DNA of 64,000 nucleotides from an uncultured Nitrosopumilaceae archaeon (GTDB lineage Archaea; Thermoproteota; Nitrososphaeria; Nitrososphaerales; Nitrosopumilaceae). The stretch spans positions 9,811-73,810 of the forward strand of contig CAZIHR010000018.1 of the NCBI GenBank assembly GCA_964538885.1, written 5' to 3'. The translations under genes were made by a program, and so were the position numbers. The notes beneath the pieces are model-generated. The model had not been told where the DNA came from. It ran no database searches and saw only the letters and a list, made by a program, of their open reading frames with translations. Below are positions 51,272 through 64,000 of the stretch, in pieces (the first letter of the stretch is position 1; each line of letters opens with the position of its first letter).

Positions 51272-51375
51272 TGGTGCAGAGGGTGGGATTTGAACCCACG
51301 AACTCCTAAGAGAAAGGATGTCTTATGTGTATGATCTTGAGTCCTTCTCGGTTGACCGGGCTTCGATACCTCTGC
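51272..51375 (-). tRNA. tRNA-Leu (anticodon CAA) with a 16-nt intron at the canonical 37/38 position; CCA encoded
   Basis: Minus strand: GCAGAGG-TA-TCG..CGA-G-AAGGA-CTCAAG[ATCATACACATAAGAC]A-TCCTT-long variable arm (CTC..GAG)-GTGGG-TTCAAAT-CCCAC-CCTCTGC-A-CCA. It is 104 nt with the intron and 88 nt without. Confidence 0.8.
51320..51335 (-). other. tRNA-Leu intron (boundaries ambiguous by 1 nt because an A flanks both sides)
   Basis: Removing this segment restores the 5-bp anticodon stem AAGGA/TCCTT and the 7-nt loop CTCAAGA. Confidence 0.7.
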
Positions 51376-57618: not shown

Positions 57619-59016
57619 TTACCTGTATTTGTAGTGTTGCTCCATCTCAGCATCTTCGTTGTATCTGGTCTCCTCGACCTCGACAAACTTTGCAAGCTCC
57701 TCGTCTGTATTGATGGACAGTTCACGCCCTTCCCACTTTGATTCAATTAGATATGCTATCCATGCTCTTATCTGGAATGACATTTTTCTTGATAGAGGCT
57801 CGAGGAATCCTTCTATGATAGTCCTTTCTGCTTCTTCGTGGTTCAGACATCTAGTCTTCAGGTAGAATATCTGCTCCTCATCTATTTGCGCTACTGATGC
57901 GGAGTGTGTAGCCTTGACATCATTGGTGAAGATCTCCAGTCCTGGTATTGCATCTGACTTTGCGTCTTTGTCAAGCAGTATGGAGCGACCTGACAGGAAC
58001 GAGTTGGACTTTGTGGCATTCTCTTTTATTCTGATCATTCCTTTAAAGAGTGACTTGGATCTGTTACGGAGGATCGACTTTTCTACAACACGTCCTTCAG
58101 TGGACGGACTTTGATGGTTTACATTTGTTTGTATGTCAAAGTTCTGCTCGTTGTTTCCAAAGATTACTTCCGAGTCATTTGCAGATGCACCTGTCCCATT
58201 CAGGTAATAATCCGTCTTGTATCTGGAAAGTAGTGCGCCAAATAGCCCTGAGTACCAATTGACCTTGGCATCCTGTGCCATGTCAATCCTTCTAGTTGAA
58301 AAATTGATTGACGACTGATCCATCATTTGTAGTGTGGTGATATCTATGTGGGAATTTGCCTGTATGTTGGCATTTAGCAGCTCCATGTATGCCTGCTGCA
58401 CATGTGATGTGGGTGAATACAACTCTTGTACGATTGTGGCTCTACTGCCCTCACCAGCTTGAATTATGTTTCGTGATATGGTGGAGATTCCATCCTCCGA
58501 TAGACATGACAACATGTGGATTGGCTCCTCAACTGTAATCCCCTTGGGAATAAGCATAAACACTCCTGAATTGAATGCCGCGTTGTTCAACGCAGTGAAT
58601 TTATCATCTTGCGAATTCGAAGACTCTAGGGCCTGCCTTACTGCATCTGGATTGTTTGTTACTGCATCCTCTATGGAGCTTATTATGATGCCATTTGATT
58701 TCATGGCATCAGGCAGACTGATTCTTGGTATGTTTGTGCCTATCTGTACTATGTTTGCCTTGCCCTTTAATTCATCAAGTCTTTTTTGCAGGAATGTGGG
58801 AACAGAGTCTGTTGTGTCTGGTGCTAGGGCCACTTGATTTGGGTCCATTTTTTGCACATCGGTGTACTTGTTGTATAGAGGAGATGTCTCAGTTGGTAGT
58901 TTGCCATATGTGGTGAGGGAATCTTTTCTGTATTGACTAAGCCAATTGGGCTCATTTCTGTATGATGAAATCTTTTCTACATGATTTAGATTCAGTTCCG
59001 AGAGTGTCTGAGACAT
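57619..59016 (-). CDS. sufD: Fe-S cluster assembly protein SufD
   Basis: 465 aa. It is a paralog of SufB that lacks the SufB N-terminal signature, with a C-terminal beta-helix region ...DAKSDAIPGLEIFTNDVKATHSASVAQIDEEQIFYLKTRCL. Confidence 0.85.
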   Translation of the reverse strand: MSQTLSELNLNHVEKISSYRNEPNWLSQYRKDSLTTYGKLPTETSPLYNKYTDVQKMDPNQVALAPDTTDSVPTFLQKRLDELKGKANIVQIGTNIPRISLPDAMKSNGIIISSIEDAVTNNPDAVRQALESSNSQDDKFTALNNAAFNSGVFMLIPKGITVEEPIHMLSCLSEDGISTISRNIIQAGEGSRATIVQELYSPTSHVQQAYMELLNANIQANSHIDITTLQMMDQSSINFSTRRIDMAQDAKVNWYSGLFGALLSRYKTDYYLNGTGASANDSEVIFGNNEQNFDIQTNVNHQSPSTEGRVVEKSILRNRSKSLFKGMIRIKENATKSNSFLSGRSILLDKDAKSDAIPGLEIFTNDVKATHSASVAQIDEEQIFYLKTRCLNHEEAERTIIEGFLEPLSRKMSFQIRAWIAYLIESKWEGRELSINTDEELAKFVEVEETRYNEDAEMEQHYKYR

Positions 59017-59036
59017 GGTAGTTCGTCGTATGGTTG

Positions 59037-60437
59037 CTAGCCCACAGAGTCATCCATTTCTAGCTTGATGAGTCTGTTTAACTCCACCGCATATTCCATG
59101 GGAAGTTCTTTTGTGAACGGTTCCATAAATCCGTTGACAATCAGTGAGAGTGCTTCCTCTTCGGTGAATCCCCTGCTCATGAGATAGAATATTTGCTCGT
59201 CACCTATCTTGCCTACTGTTGCCTCATGGGTGATTGTTGCATCTTCTTGATTGATCTCCATGTATGGATAGGTATCGGTCTTTGATGTGTCATCTAACAA
59301 CAACGCATCACACCTTACCGTAGATTTGACACCTGTAGCTCCCTTTGCAACATTAAGTAGTCCTCTGTAGGTTGAACGACCGTCTAGCCTACTGACTGAT
59401 TTTGAGGTGATCTTTGATGTGGTGTTTGGTGCTAGATGTACCATCTTTGCACCTGTATCTTGATGCTGACCTTTACCTGCAAACGCGATAGACAGAGTCT
59501 CACCATATGCACGTTCCCCTAGAAGATAGACGCCTGGATATTTCATGGTCAGCTTACTCCCTATGTTCCCATCAATCCATTCAACTGTAGCTCCGTCATA
59601 TGCATATGCCCTCTTTGTGACTAGATTGTAGACATCGTTGCTCCAATTTTGTATGGTGGTGTAGCGCAGCTTTGCATCTTTGTGGGCTACTAGTTCTACC
59701 ACTGCTGAATGTAATGATTCTGAAGAGTATACTGGTGCCGTACATCCTTCAATGTAATGTACCTCTGCACCTTCATCAACGATGATCAACGTCCTTTCAA
59801 ATTGGCCTATATTTTCTGCATTGATCCTAAAGTATGCCTGTAATGGCATGTCTATCTTGACTCCTGGTGGGACATAGATGAAGGAGCCTCCACTCCAGAC
59901 CGCACTGTTTAGTGCTGCAAACTTGTTGTCTTCGGGTGGTATGACCTTACCGAAGTATTTTTTGAATATTTCAGGTTGCTCTTTGAGTGCTGAATCCGTA
60001 TCTAGAAACAACACTCCTTGTTTTTTCAGATCCTCTCTGAGGTTGTGATATACCACCTCGGATTCATATTGAGCCCCGACACCTGCAAGGAATTTTTTCT
60101 CAGCTTCGGGAATGCCCAGCTTGTCAAATGTATTTTTTACATCTTCTGGTACATCGTCCCAGCTCTTTTCGGTCTTTTCGGATGCCTTTGCATAATAGTA
60201 GATATTTTGAAAGTCAATCATACTCAGATCCCCTCCCCATGTGGGCATTGGTTTTTTCATGAATGTCTCATAGGAACGTAGTCTAAAGTCAAGCATCCAC
60301 CGTGGCTCATCTTTCATCTTACTAATTCCTAATACGGTATCCTTTGAGAGCCCTTTCTTGCTCAGATGGACATACATCTCAGTAGAGTCTTTAAAGTCAT
60401 ATTTTGAATAATCCATGTCTAGGTTTTTGGTGGACAT
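59037..60437 (-). CDS. sufB: Fe-S cluster assembly protein SufB
   Basis: 466 aa. [40 protein letters not shown] and [36 protein letters not shown] match SufB. Confidence 0.95.
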
Positions 60438-60698
60438 GGTAGAAATAACTCTGTTATATTATAAATACATGTGGAAAAATAGGCATAGCTAAATAGATTC
60501 ATATTATATATTGTAACAAATGGTCGTTTTACTGTTTCAATATGTGCGATCAAATTATGAGGCAAAATTTTGATTGTAAATGACAATAACTGGACATATT
60601 TACTACATATTCCTATACTCTGATTGACGTTTCAAGTATGATGACATAGATAATCCTAGTGATCTTTTAAGATATTTTATTATGATTATAACGTACAG

Positions 60699-61451
60699 CT
60701 AAAGCCTTTCTAGTGCCTGCATCATCTTCTTGTGGGCTGAGTCGCGAACATCTTTTTCAAAATTTAGAATTTCATGCACATTAGGCACTACTTTGCTATG
60801 CTTTTTCATATATTTGATAAATACACCACAGTCACGTATGTCTCCGAGTATATCTTGCAGGGATTTCAAGATGGCAACCATCTTATCATATCTGTCATCC
60901 GTATTCATCTCCATGACATATCTGAGCTTTTTTGTAGTCTTTCTCATGGCGTGCAACTCATTCATGTTGCTCTTGCCGTTCAATACCGTGTTGATACTAT
61001 CATTATAGTTATCAATGAGTACAAGTAGTCTTTTTTGAAATTTATCGTATGTGGCCTTTGACTTTTTGATTTTTGGTTTTTTCATCTGAGCGATCTCTTC
61101 GGCAAGATCCAGCGCCTTAGACAATCTCTTAAGCTTCTTTTTTGTAATGAGCAATAAAATTCTTGATTCTTGGTCAAAGCCATATGCCTTTAGCTTCTTC
61201 AATATTATGTCGTGATCCCGAATAGTACTGTTTGCTGAGAAAAGCTTTCCGTATGCTAAAATTAATCTGCTTAATCTCTTTGTCCTACTGGATTTGGGAA
61301 GCACCGAGTATGCGGCCTCCAGCCTCCTACTGGTGACTCTCACATCATGAATTGTCTCTTCTGTTGGTTCCATGAGATATGTATCTAGCGTCTTGTATGC
61401 CTTGTCTAGTCTGACTAGAAATAAATCAAAAAATGATTCTTGTGTAGTCAT
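60699..61451 (-). CDS. CHAD-domain protein (polyphosphate-binding module)
   Basis: 250 aa and all-helical. It carries the CHAD hallmark repeats IHDVRVTSRRLEAAY and LHAMRKTTKKLRYVMEM, plus LQDILGDIRDCGV. Its ATG overlaps the upstream TGA (ATGA, 61448-61451). Confidence 0.85.
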   Translation of the reverse strand: MTTQESFFDLFLVRLDKAYKTLDTYLMEPTEETIHDVRVTSRRLEAAYSVLPKSSRTKRLSRLILAYGKLFSANSTIRDHDIILKKLKAYGFDQESRILLLITKKKLKRLSKALDLAEEIAQMKKPKIKKSKATYDKFQKRLLVLIDNYNDSINTVLNGKSNMNELHAMRKTTKKLRYVMEMNTDDRYDKMVAILKSLQDILGDIRDCGVFIKYMKKHSKVVPNVHEILNFEKDVRDSAHKKMMQALERL

Positions 61452-62185
61452 TCTGCCTTTGCCAGAAATCTACCAATCTGTTTTTGTAGTGTGACGTTTA
61501 CCTGTTCTTGTGTTCTGTTTCCATCTACTGATGTGAGGTCATATTTCTGTTTCAAATATTCAAATTCTCTTGCAAGCTTTCGTTGATAAATTATAAATGA
61601 CTCAAACATATCTTCGGATAGTCCCATATCTGCGCCTGACTCGTGATAGTCAAGAGACTGTCTTTTTGCAAATACTCTGTGAACCAGCTTGAATGGATCT
61701 ACATCTAAGTAGAATATCAGGTCTGGTACCAGTGCAAAGCTGTACAAGTTGGAGGACCACTGTCTTTTGATTCCACGTACTGTATTCCTTGCCATCAGTG
61801 TGTAGATGTATCTGTCTGCCAGTACCATATAGCCTGCTTGTAGTGCAGGAATTATTTTGTGCTCCATCTGATCGGCAAAGTCTGCCGCATAAAACATGGC
61901 ACTTGTTCTCTTCCCTAGTGAGATGTTCCTCTTTGCTTCCAGTATTCCCTCACCTATGAGCTCCGAACGTTTGAGGCCTGTGTTGAGTACAGCAAACCCG
62001 TCTGCTTCCAACTTGGATGTGAGCATCTCAATTTGTGTACTGCGACCAGACGCGTCCGGCCCCTCTATCACAATCAATCTTCCACTGATCTCAAGATCCT
62101 GCAAGTATGTTATGCCACCAGATCTATCGTTTCCATACCAGACTGGTTTGCGCCTCTTTTTGGTGTGTGCAAGGTTGGATCTCAT
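61448..62185 (-). CDS. thymidylate-kinase-fold P-loop protein, paralog 2 (degenerate Walker A GPDASGRST; basic N-terminal extension)
   Basis: 245 aa. RLIVIEGPDASGRSTQIEMLTSKLEADGFAV, FYAADFADQ and LADRYIYT give a Tmk-like architecture. Its ATG overlaps the TAA of paralog 1 by 1 nt (TAATG). Confidence 0.8.
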   Translation of the reverse strand: MRSNLAHTKKRRKPVWYGNDRSGGITYLQDLEISGRLIVIEGPDASGRSTQIEMLTSKLEADGFAVLNTGLKRSELIGEGILEAKRNISLGKRTSAMFYAADFADQMEHKIIPALQAGYMVLADRYIYTLMARNTVRGIKRQWSSNLYSFALVPDLIFYLDVDPFKLVHRVFAKRQSLDYHESGADMGLSEDMFESFIIYQRKLAREFEYLKQKYDLTSVDGNRTQEQVNVTLQKQIGRFLAKAE

Positions 62186-62886
62186 TATGGTACCTCTAGT
62201 ATCGACTTTTTGACTCTTGTTGGGAACAGTCGCATGACACTATCTCTCATGATCTTTTGTTGCTCTTTGATATCTAGTGTGGCATCTATAATTGTAAAGC
62301 GTTCACGTCTTGCCATGGATTCGTATTGTTCAATGATTCTACTTTGGAATATTCTGTAACTCTCGTATACATCCTTACTCAGATTCATGTCCATTCCAGC
62401 CTCGTAATATTTTAGCTTCGGCCTGCCAGCTAGAATGCGATCCATTGAAATGTCTATTGGTACTCTGAAATAAAACGCTAGGTCTGGTTTTAACGCAAAA
62501 TTATACATTTTTTTTACCCATGACTGATTACATCCTCTCGTAACATCTCTTGCATATGCAGTGTAGATGTACCTATCTGCTAACACAAAGTATCCTGCAC
62601 GTAGCAATGGCAGTATGTTCCGCTCGAATCTGTCTGCAAAGTCGGTTGCATGTAACAGACTAAATGTGATAGGGGTGAGGTTGGTCTTTTTCTTTCCTTT
62701 GGATGTTATTGACTTTACCATATCTGATGAGTTCCATTCTGTGCGGAATACTTCCAAGCCATTGTACTGAAGCCATTTTTCCAGCAGGCGTAACTGTGTA
62801 GACTTGCCCGAACCGTCGATTCCTTCTACAACAACTAGTTTTCCTGGCACACCATATTTTTTCAGAGAACGTCTTGAATAATTCAA
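62185..62886 (-). CDS. thymidylate-kinase-fold P-loop protein, paralog 1 (canonical Walker A GIDGSGKST)
   Basis: 233 aa with a TTG start. KLVVVEGIDGSGKSTQLRLLEKWLQYNGLEV, LLHATDFADR and LADRYIYTAYA give a Tmk-like architecture. Confidence 0.8.
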   Translation of the reverse strand: MNYSRRSLKKYGVPGKLVVVEGIDGSGKSTQLRLLEKWLQYNGLEVFRTEWNSSDMVKSITSKGKKKTNLTPITFSLLHATDFADRFERNILPLLRAGYFVLADRYIYTAYARDVTRGCNQSWVKKMYNFALKPDLAFYFRVPIDISMDRILAGRPKLKYYEAGMDMNLSKDVYESYRIFQSRIIEQYESMARRERFTIIDATLDIKEQQKIMRDSVMRLFPTRVKKSILEVP

Positions 62887-62911
62887 GTGTATATATTGTT
62901 CATGGATTCGC

Positions 62912-62917
62912 TATAAA
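62912..62917 (-). promoter_or_regulatory. TATA-like box of the Tmk-like/Tmk-like/CHAD operon
   Basis: The minus-strand TTTATA is centred about 28 nt upstream of the TTG start at 62886. Confidence 0.35.
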
Positions 62918-63043
62918 CTTTGCATTTTACTTGTGCGTGAAAAAACATTGTCAGAGCCGATAAACTGTATCTTTTCTTCAATTGTGGTACCTGTGGGAGC
63001 ATTATTACATATTAGCTACATTCCGGCATGCCTGATCTTTATT

Positions 63044-64000
63044 CTATTTGTAGTATATTTCTGGTTTGATGGGAATGCCCAACACGTTTGCCATTTTTGA
63101 GCATACTTGTAGCATGAGAACTTTGGGAAATTTATTCGTCGACGGATATATGTCTAGGACAAGTGTAGATGTAGTATCGGTTCTTGGTTTTACATGTGTT
63201 CTTGTTTTGTGAAAGATGTCGCATAGTGATACAACTACTGCTATCTTTTTGATAATTTTCTTGTCGTCTCCATTTAGAATATCTTTGAATTTGTCCATCA
63301 ACATCTCTGCTTTTTTCTTCTTTTGTGAATAGATCAGTGACAGTGCGACAATCAACTGTTCCCTGTGTGACAGCTCACTATCTTCATCTAGCATCGTGTA
63401 TAGTATATTGTTTACATCTCTAAACGCGGAGAGCCTGTTAATCTGTAGTATTGCTTCTGCCAGTAAAATTCTCTCTTTATTAGTTAACAGGTTCATTGTA
63501 AAAAGCAGTTGTACCAGATCCTCGACATACTCTGAAACGATACTAGACTGGCATGACATGTGAATCAGATCACGTACATGATCCACATCTATAGTGTGGG
63601 TGGCAAAGTCATCTGGGAATTGGAGTGAAAGGGACAATGTGCCCTCGCGCAGACCTTGTGCACTGATTACGAGCGACGTAAATCCCAACTTTCTTACAAT
63701 CTCTGAAATTATCAATGCCCCCACCTGAATAATGTGAGTGTTGCCTCCTACAATCGATTCAATCCTCGATATGTCTTTGGATGTACCTGACAGCAATTCA
63801 TCTGAGATTGATTTTAGTGATTCGTATGACATGGAATAGTTGTGTACCTTTGAGAGTGGATAGTGTATCATCTGTTGGTGGTACTTTGCTATCTTTCGTA
63901 ACGTGCCTCCAACACCTACTAGCACATGATCAATACCATCAGAAATTCCCAGAGCCTCTCTTGTAGGCAGGCTCTCATTTATGTGAGACTGCATCATTGA
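63044..64000 (-). CDS. ppx: Ppx/GppA-family exopolyphosphatase (C-terminal ~318 aa; 5' end beyond the right window edge)
   Basis: The ORF is open to position 64000. HVLVGVGGTLRKIAK, GGNTHIIQVGALIISEIVRKLGFTSLVISAQGLREGTL (the end of the actin-like ATPase domain) is followed by a helical HD-like domain. Confidence 0.8.
   Translation of the reverse strand, partial: SMMQSHINESLPTREALGISDGIDHVLVGVGGTLRKIAKYHQQMIHYPLSKVHNYSMSYESLKSISDELLSGTSKDISRIESIVGGNTHIIQVGALIISEIVRKLGFTSLVISAQGLREGTLSLSLQFPDDFATHTIDVDHVRDLIHMSCQSSIVSEYVEDLVQLLFTMNLLTNKERILLAEAILQINRLSAFRDVNNILYTMLDEDSELSHREQLIVALSLIYSQKKKKAEMLMDKFKDILNGDDKKIIKKIAVVVSLCDIFHKTRTHVKPRTDTTSTLVLDIYPSTNKFPKVLMLQVCSKMANVLGIPIKPEIYYK

Follow-up and report, generated by a model that had tools for sequence, protein, structure and literature searches.

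Polyphosphate kinase 3 (PPK3) of Sulfolobus acidocaldarius is a heteromeric enzyme formed by Saci_2019 and Saci_2020, two proteins annotated as "thymidylate kinases" whose genes lie between ppx and a CHAD gene (Höfmann et al., JBC 2026, PMC12995831; bioRxiv 10.1101/2024.08.28.610084). Here we analyse a pair of adjacent thymidylate-kinase-like genes, called P1 and P2, from an uncultured archaeon of the Nitrosopumilaceae (contig CAZIHR010000018.1 of assembly GCA_964538885.1; the whole stretch of 64,000 nucleotides that was analysed is called the window). Sequence comparison indicates that P1 and P2 very probably encode the catalytic and the regulatory subunit, respectively, of a PPK3 that belongs to the polyphosphate (polyP) operon of this ammonia oxidiser. 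The locus adds an uncharacterised member to a family already known and does not represent a new system; the main idea dates from publications of 2024 to 2026.

The catalytic subunit of the S. acidocaldarius enzyme (SaPPK3) is Saci_2019 (cPPK3). It makes polyP from ATP, and it makes ATP from ADP and polyP more readily; a basic cleft for polyP has been described for cPPK3 (PMC12995831). The regulatory subunit, Saci_2020 (rPPK3), is inactive alone, with trace ADP formation only, and boosts the activity approximately ten-fold. Gel filtration indicates an α2β2 complex, and the enzyme is inhibited by ADP and also by excess ATP. Thymidine monophosphate (dTMP) is phosphorylated by a different protein, Saci_0893, and by neither Saci_2019 nor Saci_2020 (PMC12995831). 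Both versions of the paper describe rPPK3s as proteins without the DRX arginine and give this as the cause of their inactivity (PMC12995831; bioRxiv 10.1101/2024.08.28.610084). In the preprint, PPK3 homologues are found mainly in Sulfolobales, with some in Nitrososphaerales and few in bacteria (bioRxiv 10.1101/2024.08.28.610084); the journal version gives Sulfolobaceae, Nitrososphaeraceae and a few bacteria (PMC12995831).

Sequence features of the gene pair

The stop codon of P1 and the start codon of P2 have one nucleotide in common. The two proteins, both of the thymidylate kinase (Tmk) fold, are 39% identical across 196 residues (E = 1e-52), so their resemblance is beyond chance. The N-terminus of P1 is kept among homologues with similar start positions. 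An earlier note on this DNA had pointed to an asymmetry between the two P-loops, and the alignment bears it out. The Walker A motif of P1 is GIDGSGKST at residues 22–30 (GSGK28ST), and that of P2 is GPDASGRST at residues 42–50 (ASGR48ST), with the Lys replaced by Arg. The codon of Arg48 is CGC, which is at least two base changes away from any Lys codon, so the Arg is not a single-base slip from Lys. A sequencing error was ruled out by this codon together with the invariance of the Arg in homologues.

The other features named in that note were also located. The string LADRYIYT is present in both proteins (residues 102–109 of P1 and 122–129 of P2), and in the LID region P1 has RPKLKYYEAGMDMNLSKDVYES at residues 155–176 and P2 has RQSLDYHESGADMGLSEDMFES at residues 175–196. 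P1 further contains D104-R105-Y106, the TEWNSS motif, a basic cluster at K65–K67, and a LID with R150, R155, K159 and E162-A-G-M-D166. P2 retains D124-R125-Y126 and has the residues G70, R73 and Y99 that are typical of the regulatory (r) class. Its LID carries R170 and E182-S-G-A-D186, with Asp179 at the position where the catalytic (c) class has Lys. The N-terminus of P2 is, as noted earlier, longer and basic: it exceeds that of P1 by exactly 20 residues (G35 of P2 aligns with G15 of P1), and the extension (KKRRKPVWYG...) bears KKRRK at residues 9–13.

Relation to thymidylate kinase and to PPK3

Canonical Tmk acts as a homodimer on dTMP. We aligned the pair and its relatives with PfTMPK and four canonical bacterial Tmk. 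Where the canonical enzyme has REPGGT, c has TEWNSS and r has TGLKRS, and the thymine-stacking Phe of the canonical LLFxADR is replaced by an invariant Asp (Asp82 in P1 and Asp102 in P2). In the PPK3 LID, an 8-residue stretch comes after E-[AS]-G-x-D; the canonical Tmk is without this stretch and has NRMD. The LID motif of P1 and P2 was absent from the canonical Tmk aligned, including PfTMPK and S. aureus TMK. The earlier note had regarded the LID motif as foreign to Tmk, and had held that the idea would fall if this motif and the GRST P-loop were common in ordinary archaeal Tmk; neither is an ordinary Tmk feature in these alignments. Since the PPK3 family generally has GRST and the LID motif, both are a family signature and not specific to the window genome. 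A changed acceptor site had also been proposed, and the replacement of the stacking Phe and of REPGGT, with basic residues that are conserved in the class of P1 and not in that of P2, support such a change. When the 39-residue LID segment of P1 was compared with Protein Data Bank sequences (phmmer), no match was returned, not even 2plr, a query of this length being too short to inform.

Among solved structures, the closest relative of both proteins is STK_15430 of Sulfurisphaera tokodaii (2plr, 4nzy, 4rzx, 5h70), a cPPK3 homologue that was deposited as a dTMP kinase. P1 matches it (2plr/5h70) with E = 1e-61 and 48% identity, the next Tmk following at approximately 1e-16. For P2 the corresponding values are E = 7e-35 and approximately 1e-12 for the next thymidylate kinase. 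The AlphaFold2 model of P2 as a single chain (pLDDT 86, pTM 0.84) also has STK_15430 as its closest fold, with a target-normalised TM-score of 0.89–0.92.

A neighbour-joining tree (a distance method; 100 bootstraps) was built from 71 sequences. The sample comprised 33 proteins of c type and 33 of r type; canonical-type Tmk from loci L076–L081 served as the outgroup. P1 falls in a c clade with Saci_2019 and STK_15430 (87/100 bootstraps), P2 in an r clade with Saci_2020 and the S. tokodaii partner (91/100), and PPK3 is split from canonical Tmk in 89/100. We also considered an independent duplication into c and r in the Sulfolobaceae. It was rejected, because the c and r proteins of this family came together in 1/100 bootstraps.

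The genes around the pair match those in Sulfolobus. The operon has the order SixA-like (His_Phos_1), ppx, P1, P2, CHAD, and the operons of S. acidocaldarius (L082) and S. tokodaii (L083), which we retrieved, show the same gene order. The earlier note had suggested a heteromer of a catalytic and a regulatory or scaffold subunit, possibly acting on polyP. Homology to the Saci_2019/Saci_2020 pair, the two clades and the operon lend support to this suggestion.

By homology to SaPPK3, P1 would bind ATP or ADP at its P-loop and would hold the end of the polyP chain in a basic cleft that replaces the dTMP site. It would move phosphate reversibly between ATP and polyP, with the reaction from ADP and polyP to ATP being favoured. 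P2 would have little or no activity alone; it would oligomerise with P1 (α2β2 in Sulfolobus) and activate it approximately ten-fold. P2 is probably unable to catalyse the transfer, because a Lys-to-Arg change in Walker A usually abolishes phosphoryl transfer in P-loop nucleoside triphosphatases. What the pair catalyses, in which stoichiometry it assembles and how the Arg of P2 affects function are inferences.

Distribution of the asymmetric pair

A genome scan with one genome per species returned at least 560 relatives, and pairs were counted in the best 80 loci. In 67 of these 80, c and r lie next to each other on one strand, in the order c→r. The Sulfolobaceae stood outside the scan listing; Saci_2019/Saci_2020, like the S. 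tokodaii pair, were reached via the 2plr sequence and then the encoding contigs. Close homologues of P1 and P2 (72–88% identity) belong to assemblies of Nitrosopumilaceae, Nitrosarchaeum and Nitrosopumilus, which places the window in an ammonia oxidiser of this family. Among the matches listed, archaeal c→r pairs occur in Nitrosopumilaceae, Thermoplasmata, Marine Group II and Methanoliparum. The bacterial pairs, among the matches listed, occur in Verrucomicrobiota, Acidobacteriota, Nitrospirota, Chloroflexota, Planctomycetota, Bacteroidota and others. The bacterial spread of the pair is wider than the "few bacteria" of the PPK3 papers. Genes for Ppx, CHAD or SixA-like proteins lie within 6 kb in 48 of the 71 tabulated pair loci.

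The asymmetry of the P-loops is preserved across nearly all of these pairs. Each of the 68 c subunits from the pairs analysed shows GK[ST]T together with an intact DR[YF] (DRY in 67 and DRF in one). Its r partner has GR[ST]x in 65/68, and DR[YF] is kept in 65/68.

Several loci depart from the usual arrangement. In three loci from Vicinamibacterales/Acidobacteriota (L071, L073 and L074), neither the P-loop (e.g., DGVNGAAVET) nor DRY (APY) survives in the partner, a degeneration much stronger than elsewhere. A Gastranaerophilales locus (L065) has GKST in both adjacent paralogues. In a locus from Planctomycetota (L043), r lies approximately 3 kb upstream of c, and the one long open reading frame between them matches Ppx and CHAD. 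Fused architectures were seen among P0241, P0246, P0276, P0279, P0356, P0361, P0375 and P0381. P0241 (460 residues, Alicyclobacillaceae) joins a c domain to a degenerate partner domain (EGSDYSGHYQ). Three fused proteins of 650–700 residues have the c domain first, and in four proteins of more than 1000 residues the c-type domain starts between residues 460 and 620.

The regulatory subunit

For class-specific conservation we compared 70 c sequences with 64 r sequences. The positions conserved only in c are K28, E50-W-N-S-S54, K58, K65–67, H79, R86, R155, K159, R178, R183 and R214. The basic residues K58, K65–67, R86, R155, K159, R178, R183 and R214 agree with the published polyP cleft. Conserved only in r are R48 (100%), G70, R73 (98%), Y99 (100%) and W181, together with an Asp in place of the LID Lys159. 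R73 aligns with the arginine of FPxR in PfTMPK, where c has Ser. Both classes conserve DRY, R113/133, R117/137, R150/170, D82/102 and Q181/201 at 94–100%, and the E, G and D of the LID motif at 100%. Because these residues are shared and R48 and R73 are conserved in r, the phosphate site of the regulatory subunit is, as far as its sequence indicates, modified yet maintained and not decayed.

None of 88 close homologues of P2 departs from R48, D124-R125-Y126 or E182-S-G-x-D186. This invariance, together with GR[ST]x in nearly all of the pairs analysed, makes the Lys-to-Arg change in Walker A the rule for the r subunit and no peculiarity of the window genome. The DRX arginine behaves differently from the published account. 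P2 has D124-R125-Y126 and so does not conform to the description of a regulatory subunit without this arginine, and the published cause of inactivity is inapplicable to it. Among the r proteins examined, the arginine is lost in the Sulfolobaceae pair (ADGY) and in the three Vicinamibacterales partners (APY). Judged from these sequences, its loss looks like a feature of particular lineages and not one that defines the family, so its presence in P2 is no argument against PPK3 membership. Of the two Sulfolobaceae partners, Saci_2020 (L082:5621-6253) has SSGKTT with ADGY, and the S. tokodaii protein (L083:5626-6243) has GSGRTA with ADGY; the Walker A Lys of Saci_2020 may be a reversion. Since the constant change in r is Lys-to-Arg and not the loss of DRX, the published explanation of its inactivity may need revision. 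Since r also keeps DRY, the regulatory subunit may still bind a phosphate ligand.

The N-terminal extension of P2 is conserved in Nitrosopumilaceae, with the consensus KKRKPxWYGxxxxGGIPYL and an invariant Trp. A related motif, [FWY]YGxG[LI]P, is found in many bacterial partners, and the Sulfolobaceae partners are without an N-terminal extension. In the AlphaFold2 model, residues 11–30 of P2 are ordered (pLDDT ~80) and residues 1–8 are disordered.

Alternative explanations

The conservation of the r site raises the question of what P2 does in the complex. One tentative answer is that P2 is a ligand-binding regulatory module, in which the Arg48 P-loop, together with DRY, R73, R133, R137, R170 and E182-x-G-x-D186, would bind ATP/ADP or the end of polyP. 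The bound ligand might then adjust how active the complex is, or in which direction it works, in response to energy charge or the supply of polyP, an extension of the idea that we hold equally tentatively. The phosphate-contacting positions of the Tmk fold, except for the Walker A Lys, are conserved at 94–100% in 64 r sequences drawn from many phyla. The Arg in the place of this Lys is conserved at 100% in the r class and is invariant in the 88 close homologues, and R73 (98% in r, Ser in c) occupies the position of the FPxR arginine of PfTMPK. A change from Lys to Arg at this position is also known in general to often spare nucleotide binding. The inhibition of SaPPK3 by ADP and by excess ATP (PMC12995831) would suit a sensor as well. 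However, Saci_2020 has lost the DRX Arg and shows only trace ADP formation, yet it activates Saci_2019, so ligand binding is dispensable for activation in Sulfolobus. The conservation could instead reflect structural roles at the subunit interface. In its general form, the proposal is that the r subunit of most PPK3, including P2, is a conserved sensor that uses the Arg P-loop, the DRY and LID arginines, Arg73 and the ordered extension to bind ATP/ADP or polyP; we regard this as possible but doubtful. If it were true, the sensor subunit would set the direction or the processivity of PPK3. The Sulfolobus enzyme would then be an outlier that has degenerated, and how PPK3 is regulated in general would still await description.

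That P2 is a second active kinase, with Arg standing in for Lys, is unlikely. In that case the complex would combine active sites of two kinds, as some two-domain PPK2 do. It is just as unlikely that, to give one example, one site would serve polyP and ADP and the other another nucleotide. DRY, the LID Arg and other residues of the catalytic site are retained in P2, and the r class is under strong purifying selection. But none of the 64 aligned r sequences retains the Walker A Lys, the basic residues of the polyP cleft are missing from r, where the equivalent of Lys159 is Asp, and the characterised orthologue is inactive (PMC12995831).

The public annotation would make P1 and P2 ordinary thymidylate kinases that arose as tandem duplicates. 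The profile scores speak for it. Against PF02223 (Thymidylate_kin; cut-off 27) P1 scores 90.7 bits and P2 75.3 bits; against TIGR00041 (the NCBI dTMP kinase equivalog; cut-off 83.25) the scores are 92.4 and 88.7 bits. As both proteins exceed the TIGR00041 cut-off, sequence models alone still label them Tmk. All named homologues in public records are likewise called dTMP kinase, as is the deposited STK_15430. We nevertheless consider this explanation very improbable, given that the residues of the dTMP site are replaced in P1 and P2, that the PPK3 pair is set apart from canonical Tmk in the tree (89/100 bootstraps), and that the pair is linked with ppx, CHAD and SixA genes across phyla. Besides the profile scores, a further point weighs against assignment of the pair to PPK3: P2 keeps the DRX arginine and E-x-G-x-D and has an extension, all unlike Saci_2020, and its function could differ.

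Operon and genomic neighbourhood

The coordinates of the genes are given in Table 1. The window ends within ppx, and contig L001, which is 100% identical to window positions 60532–64000 and reaches 1359 bp beyond, supplies the remainder. On this contig the full ppx encodes 510 residues, and the SixA-like gene (His_Phos_1, 163 residues) precedes it just beyond the window.

Table 1. Positions in the window of the PPK3 gene pair and of the adjoining operon features.
Feature	Position	Strand	Basis or remark
CHAD-domain protein, 250 aa, polyP-granule-associated family	60699..61451	minus	Pfam CHAD, E = 4e-18
P2, predicted regulatory subunit rPPK3	61448..62185	minus	245 aa, ATG start
P1, predicted catalytic subunit cPPK3	62185..62886	minus	233 aa, TTG start
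Spacer between ppx and P1, 157 nt	62887..63043	minus	direct reading of sequence
ppx, 3' part (Ppx/GppA family exopolyphosphatase)	63044..64000, cut by window end	minus	Pfam Ppx-GppA and TIGR03706; frame open to end

The start of the CHAD gene and the stop of P2 share four nucleotides (ATGA). The overlaps between P1, P2 and CHAD (1 nt and 4 nt) are compatible with co-translation. The spacer between ppx and P1 contains TTTATA at 62912–62917, approximately 26–31 nt upstream of the TTG start of P1. This element may be an archaeal TATA box, in which case it would serve as an internal promoter for a leaderless P1-P2-CHAD transcript.

A tblastn search of the 64-kb window found no third Tmk-like gene. 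Downstream of CHAD, after a gap of 261 nt, are two genes of the SufBD family on the minus strand (466 and 465 residues; 57619–60437). At 51275–51375, also on the minus strand, there is an Rfam tRNA match of 101 nt (41.5 bits) with no ARAGORN call; its length suggests an intron-containing archaeal tRNA.

Significance

When the public dTMP kinase labels are reread as PPK3, a predicted enzyme that makes and uses polyP is placed beside an exopolyphosphatase in an ammonia-oxidising archaeon. Such an enzyme is relevant to how an abundant group of nitrifiers stores phosphorus and buffers energy. Of 23 thaumarchaeal genomes surveyed earlier, only 2 were found to have ppx. Two points may matter for the PPK3 family. 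The general signature of the r subunit, a Walker A Lys-to-Arg change with the rest of the site kept, differs from the reported loss of DRX, and the PPK3-type pair is widespread across bacterial phyla.

Comparison with known systems

Canonical Tmk (E. coli, A. aeolicus, human, P. falciparum) has the fold, the P-loop, the DRY/DRF and the LID arginine in common with P1 and P2. It differs in having REPGGT and FPxR, LLFxADR with the stacking Phe, DRYxDSxxAYQG and a short NRMD LID that lacks the LSxDxxES stretch of eight residues.

The two-domain class II PPK2 (P. aeruginosa PA3455/PPK2C) resembles PPK3 in combining an active P-loop kinase module with an inactive, oligomerising paralogous module, an analogy that comes from the PPK3 authors (PMC12995831). 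PPK2 differs in that it is a separate P-loop kinase family, its modules are fused in one chain, and its sites for ADP and polyP have changed places compared with PPK3. Among the Pfam and NCBIfam hits of the window proteins at E ≤ 0.01, there was no match to the PPK2 family.

STK_15430 and P1 have TEWNSS, HATDF, DRYIYTAYARD and E-A-G-x-D in common. The LID of STK_15430 reads KIKPQEAGAD, compared with KLKYYEAGMD in P1, and its crystal contains the single subunit with no partner.

The closest known system is SaPPK3. Its operon, saci_2017–2021, matches that of the window in content and order, and the genes overlap in both. The host of SaPPK3 is a thermoacidophile, whereas that of P1 and P2 is a mesophilic ammonia oxidiser. 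Saci_2019 and P1 are 48% identical and have their Walker A, DRY and LID features in common. Saci_2020 and P2 belong to one clade and have the r-class residues G70 and Y99 and the ADQ motif in common, but their identity is only 24%. In Saci_2020, Walker A still has its Lys (SSGKTT), DGY stands where P2 has DRY, the LID motif is degraded (LSESVD), and there is no N-terminal extension. P2 reverses this pattern: the Lys is replaced by Arg, DRY and ESGAD are intact, and the protein begins with an extension of 20 residues.

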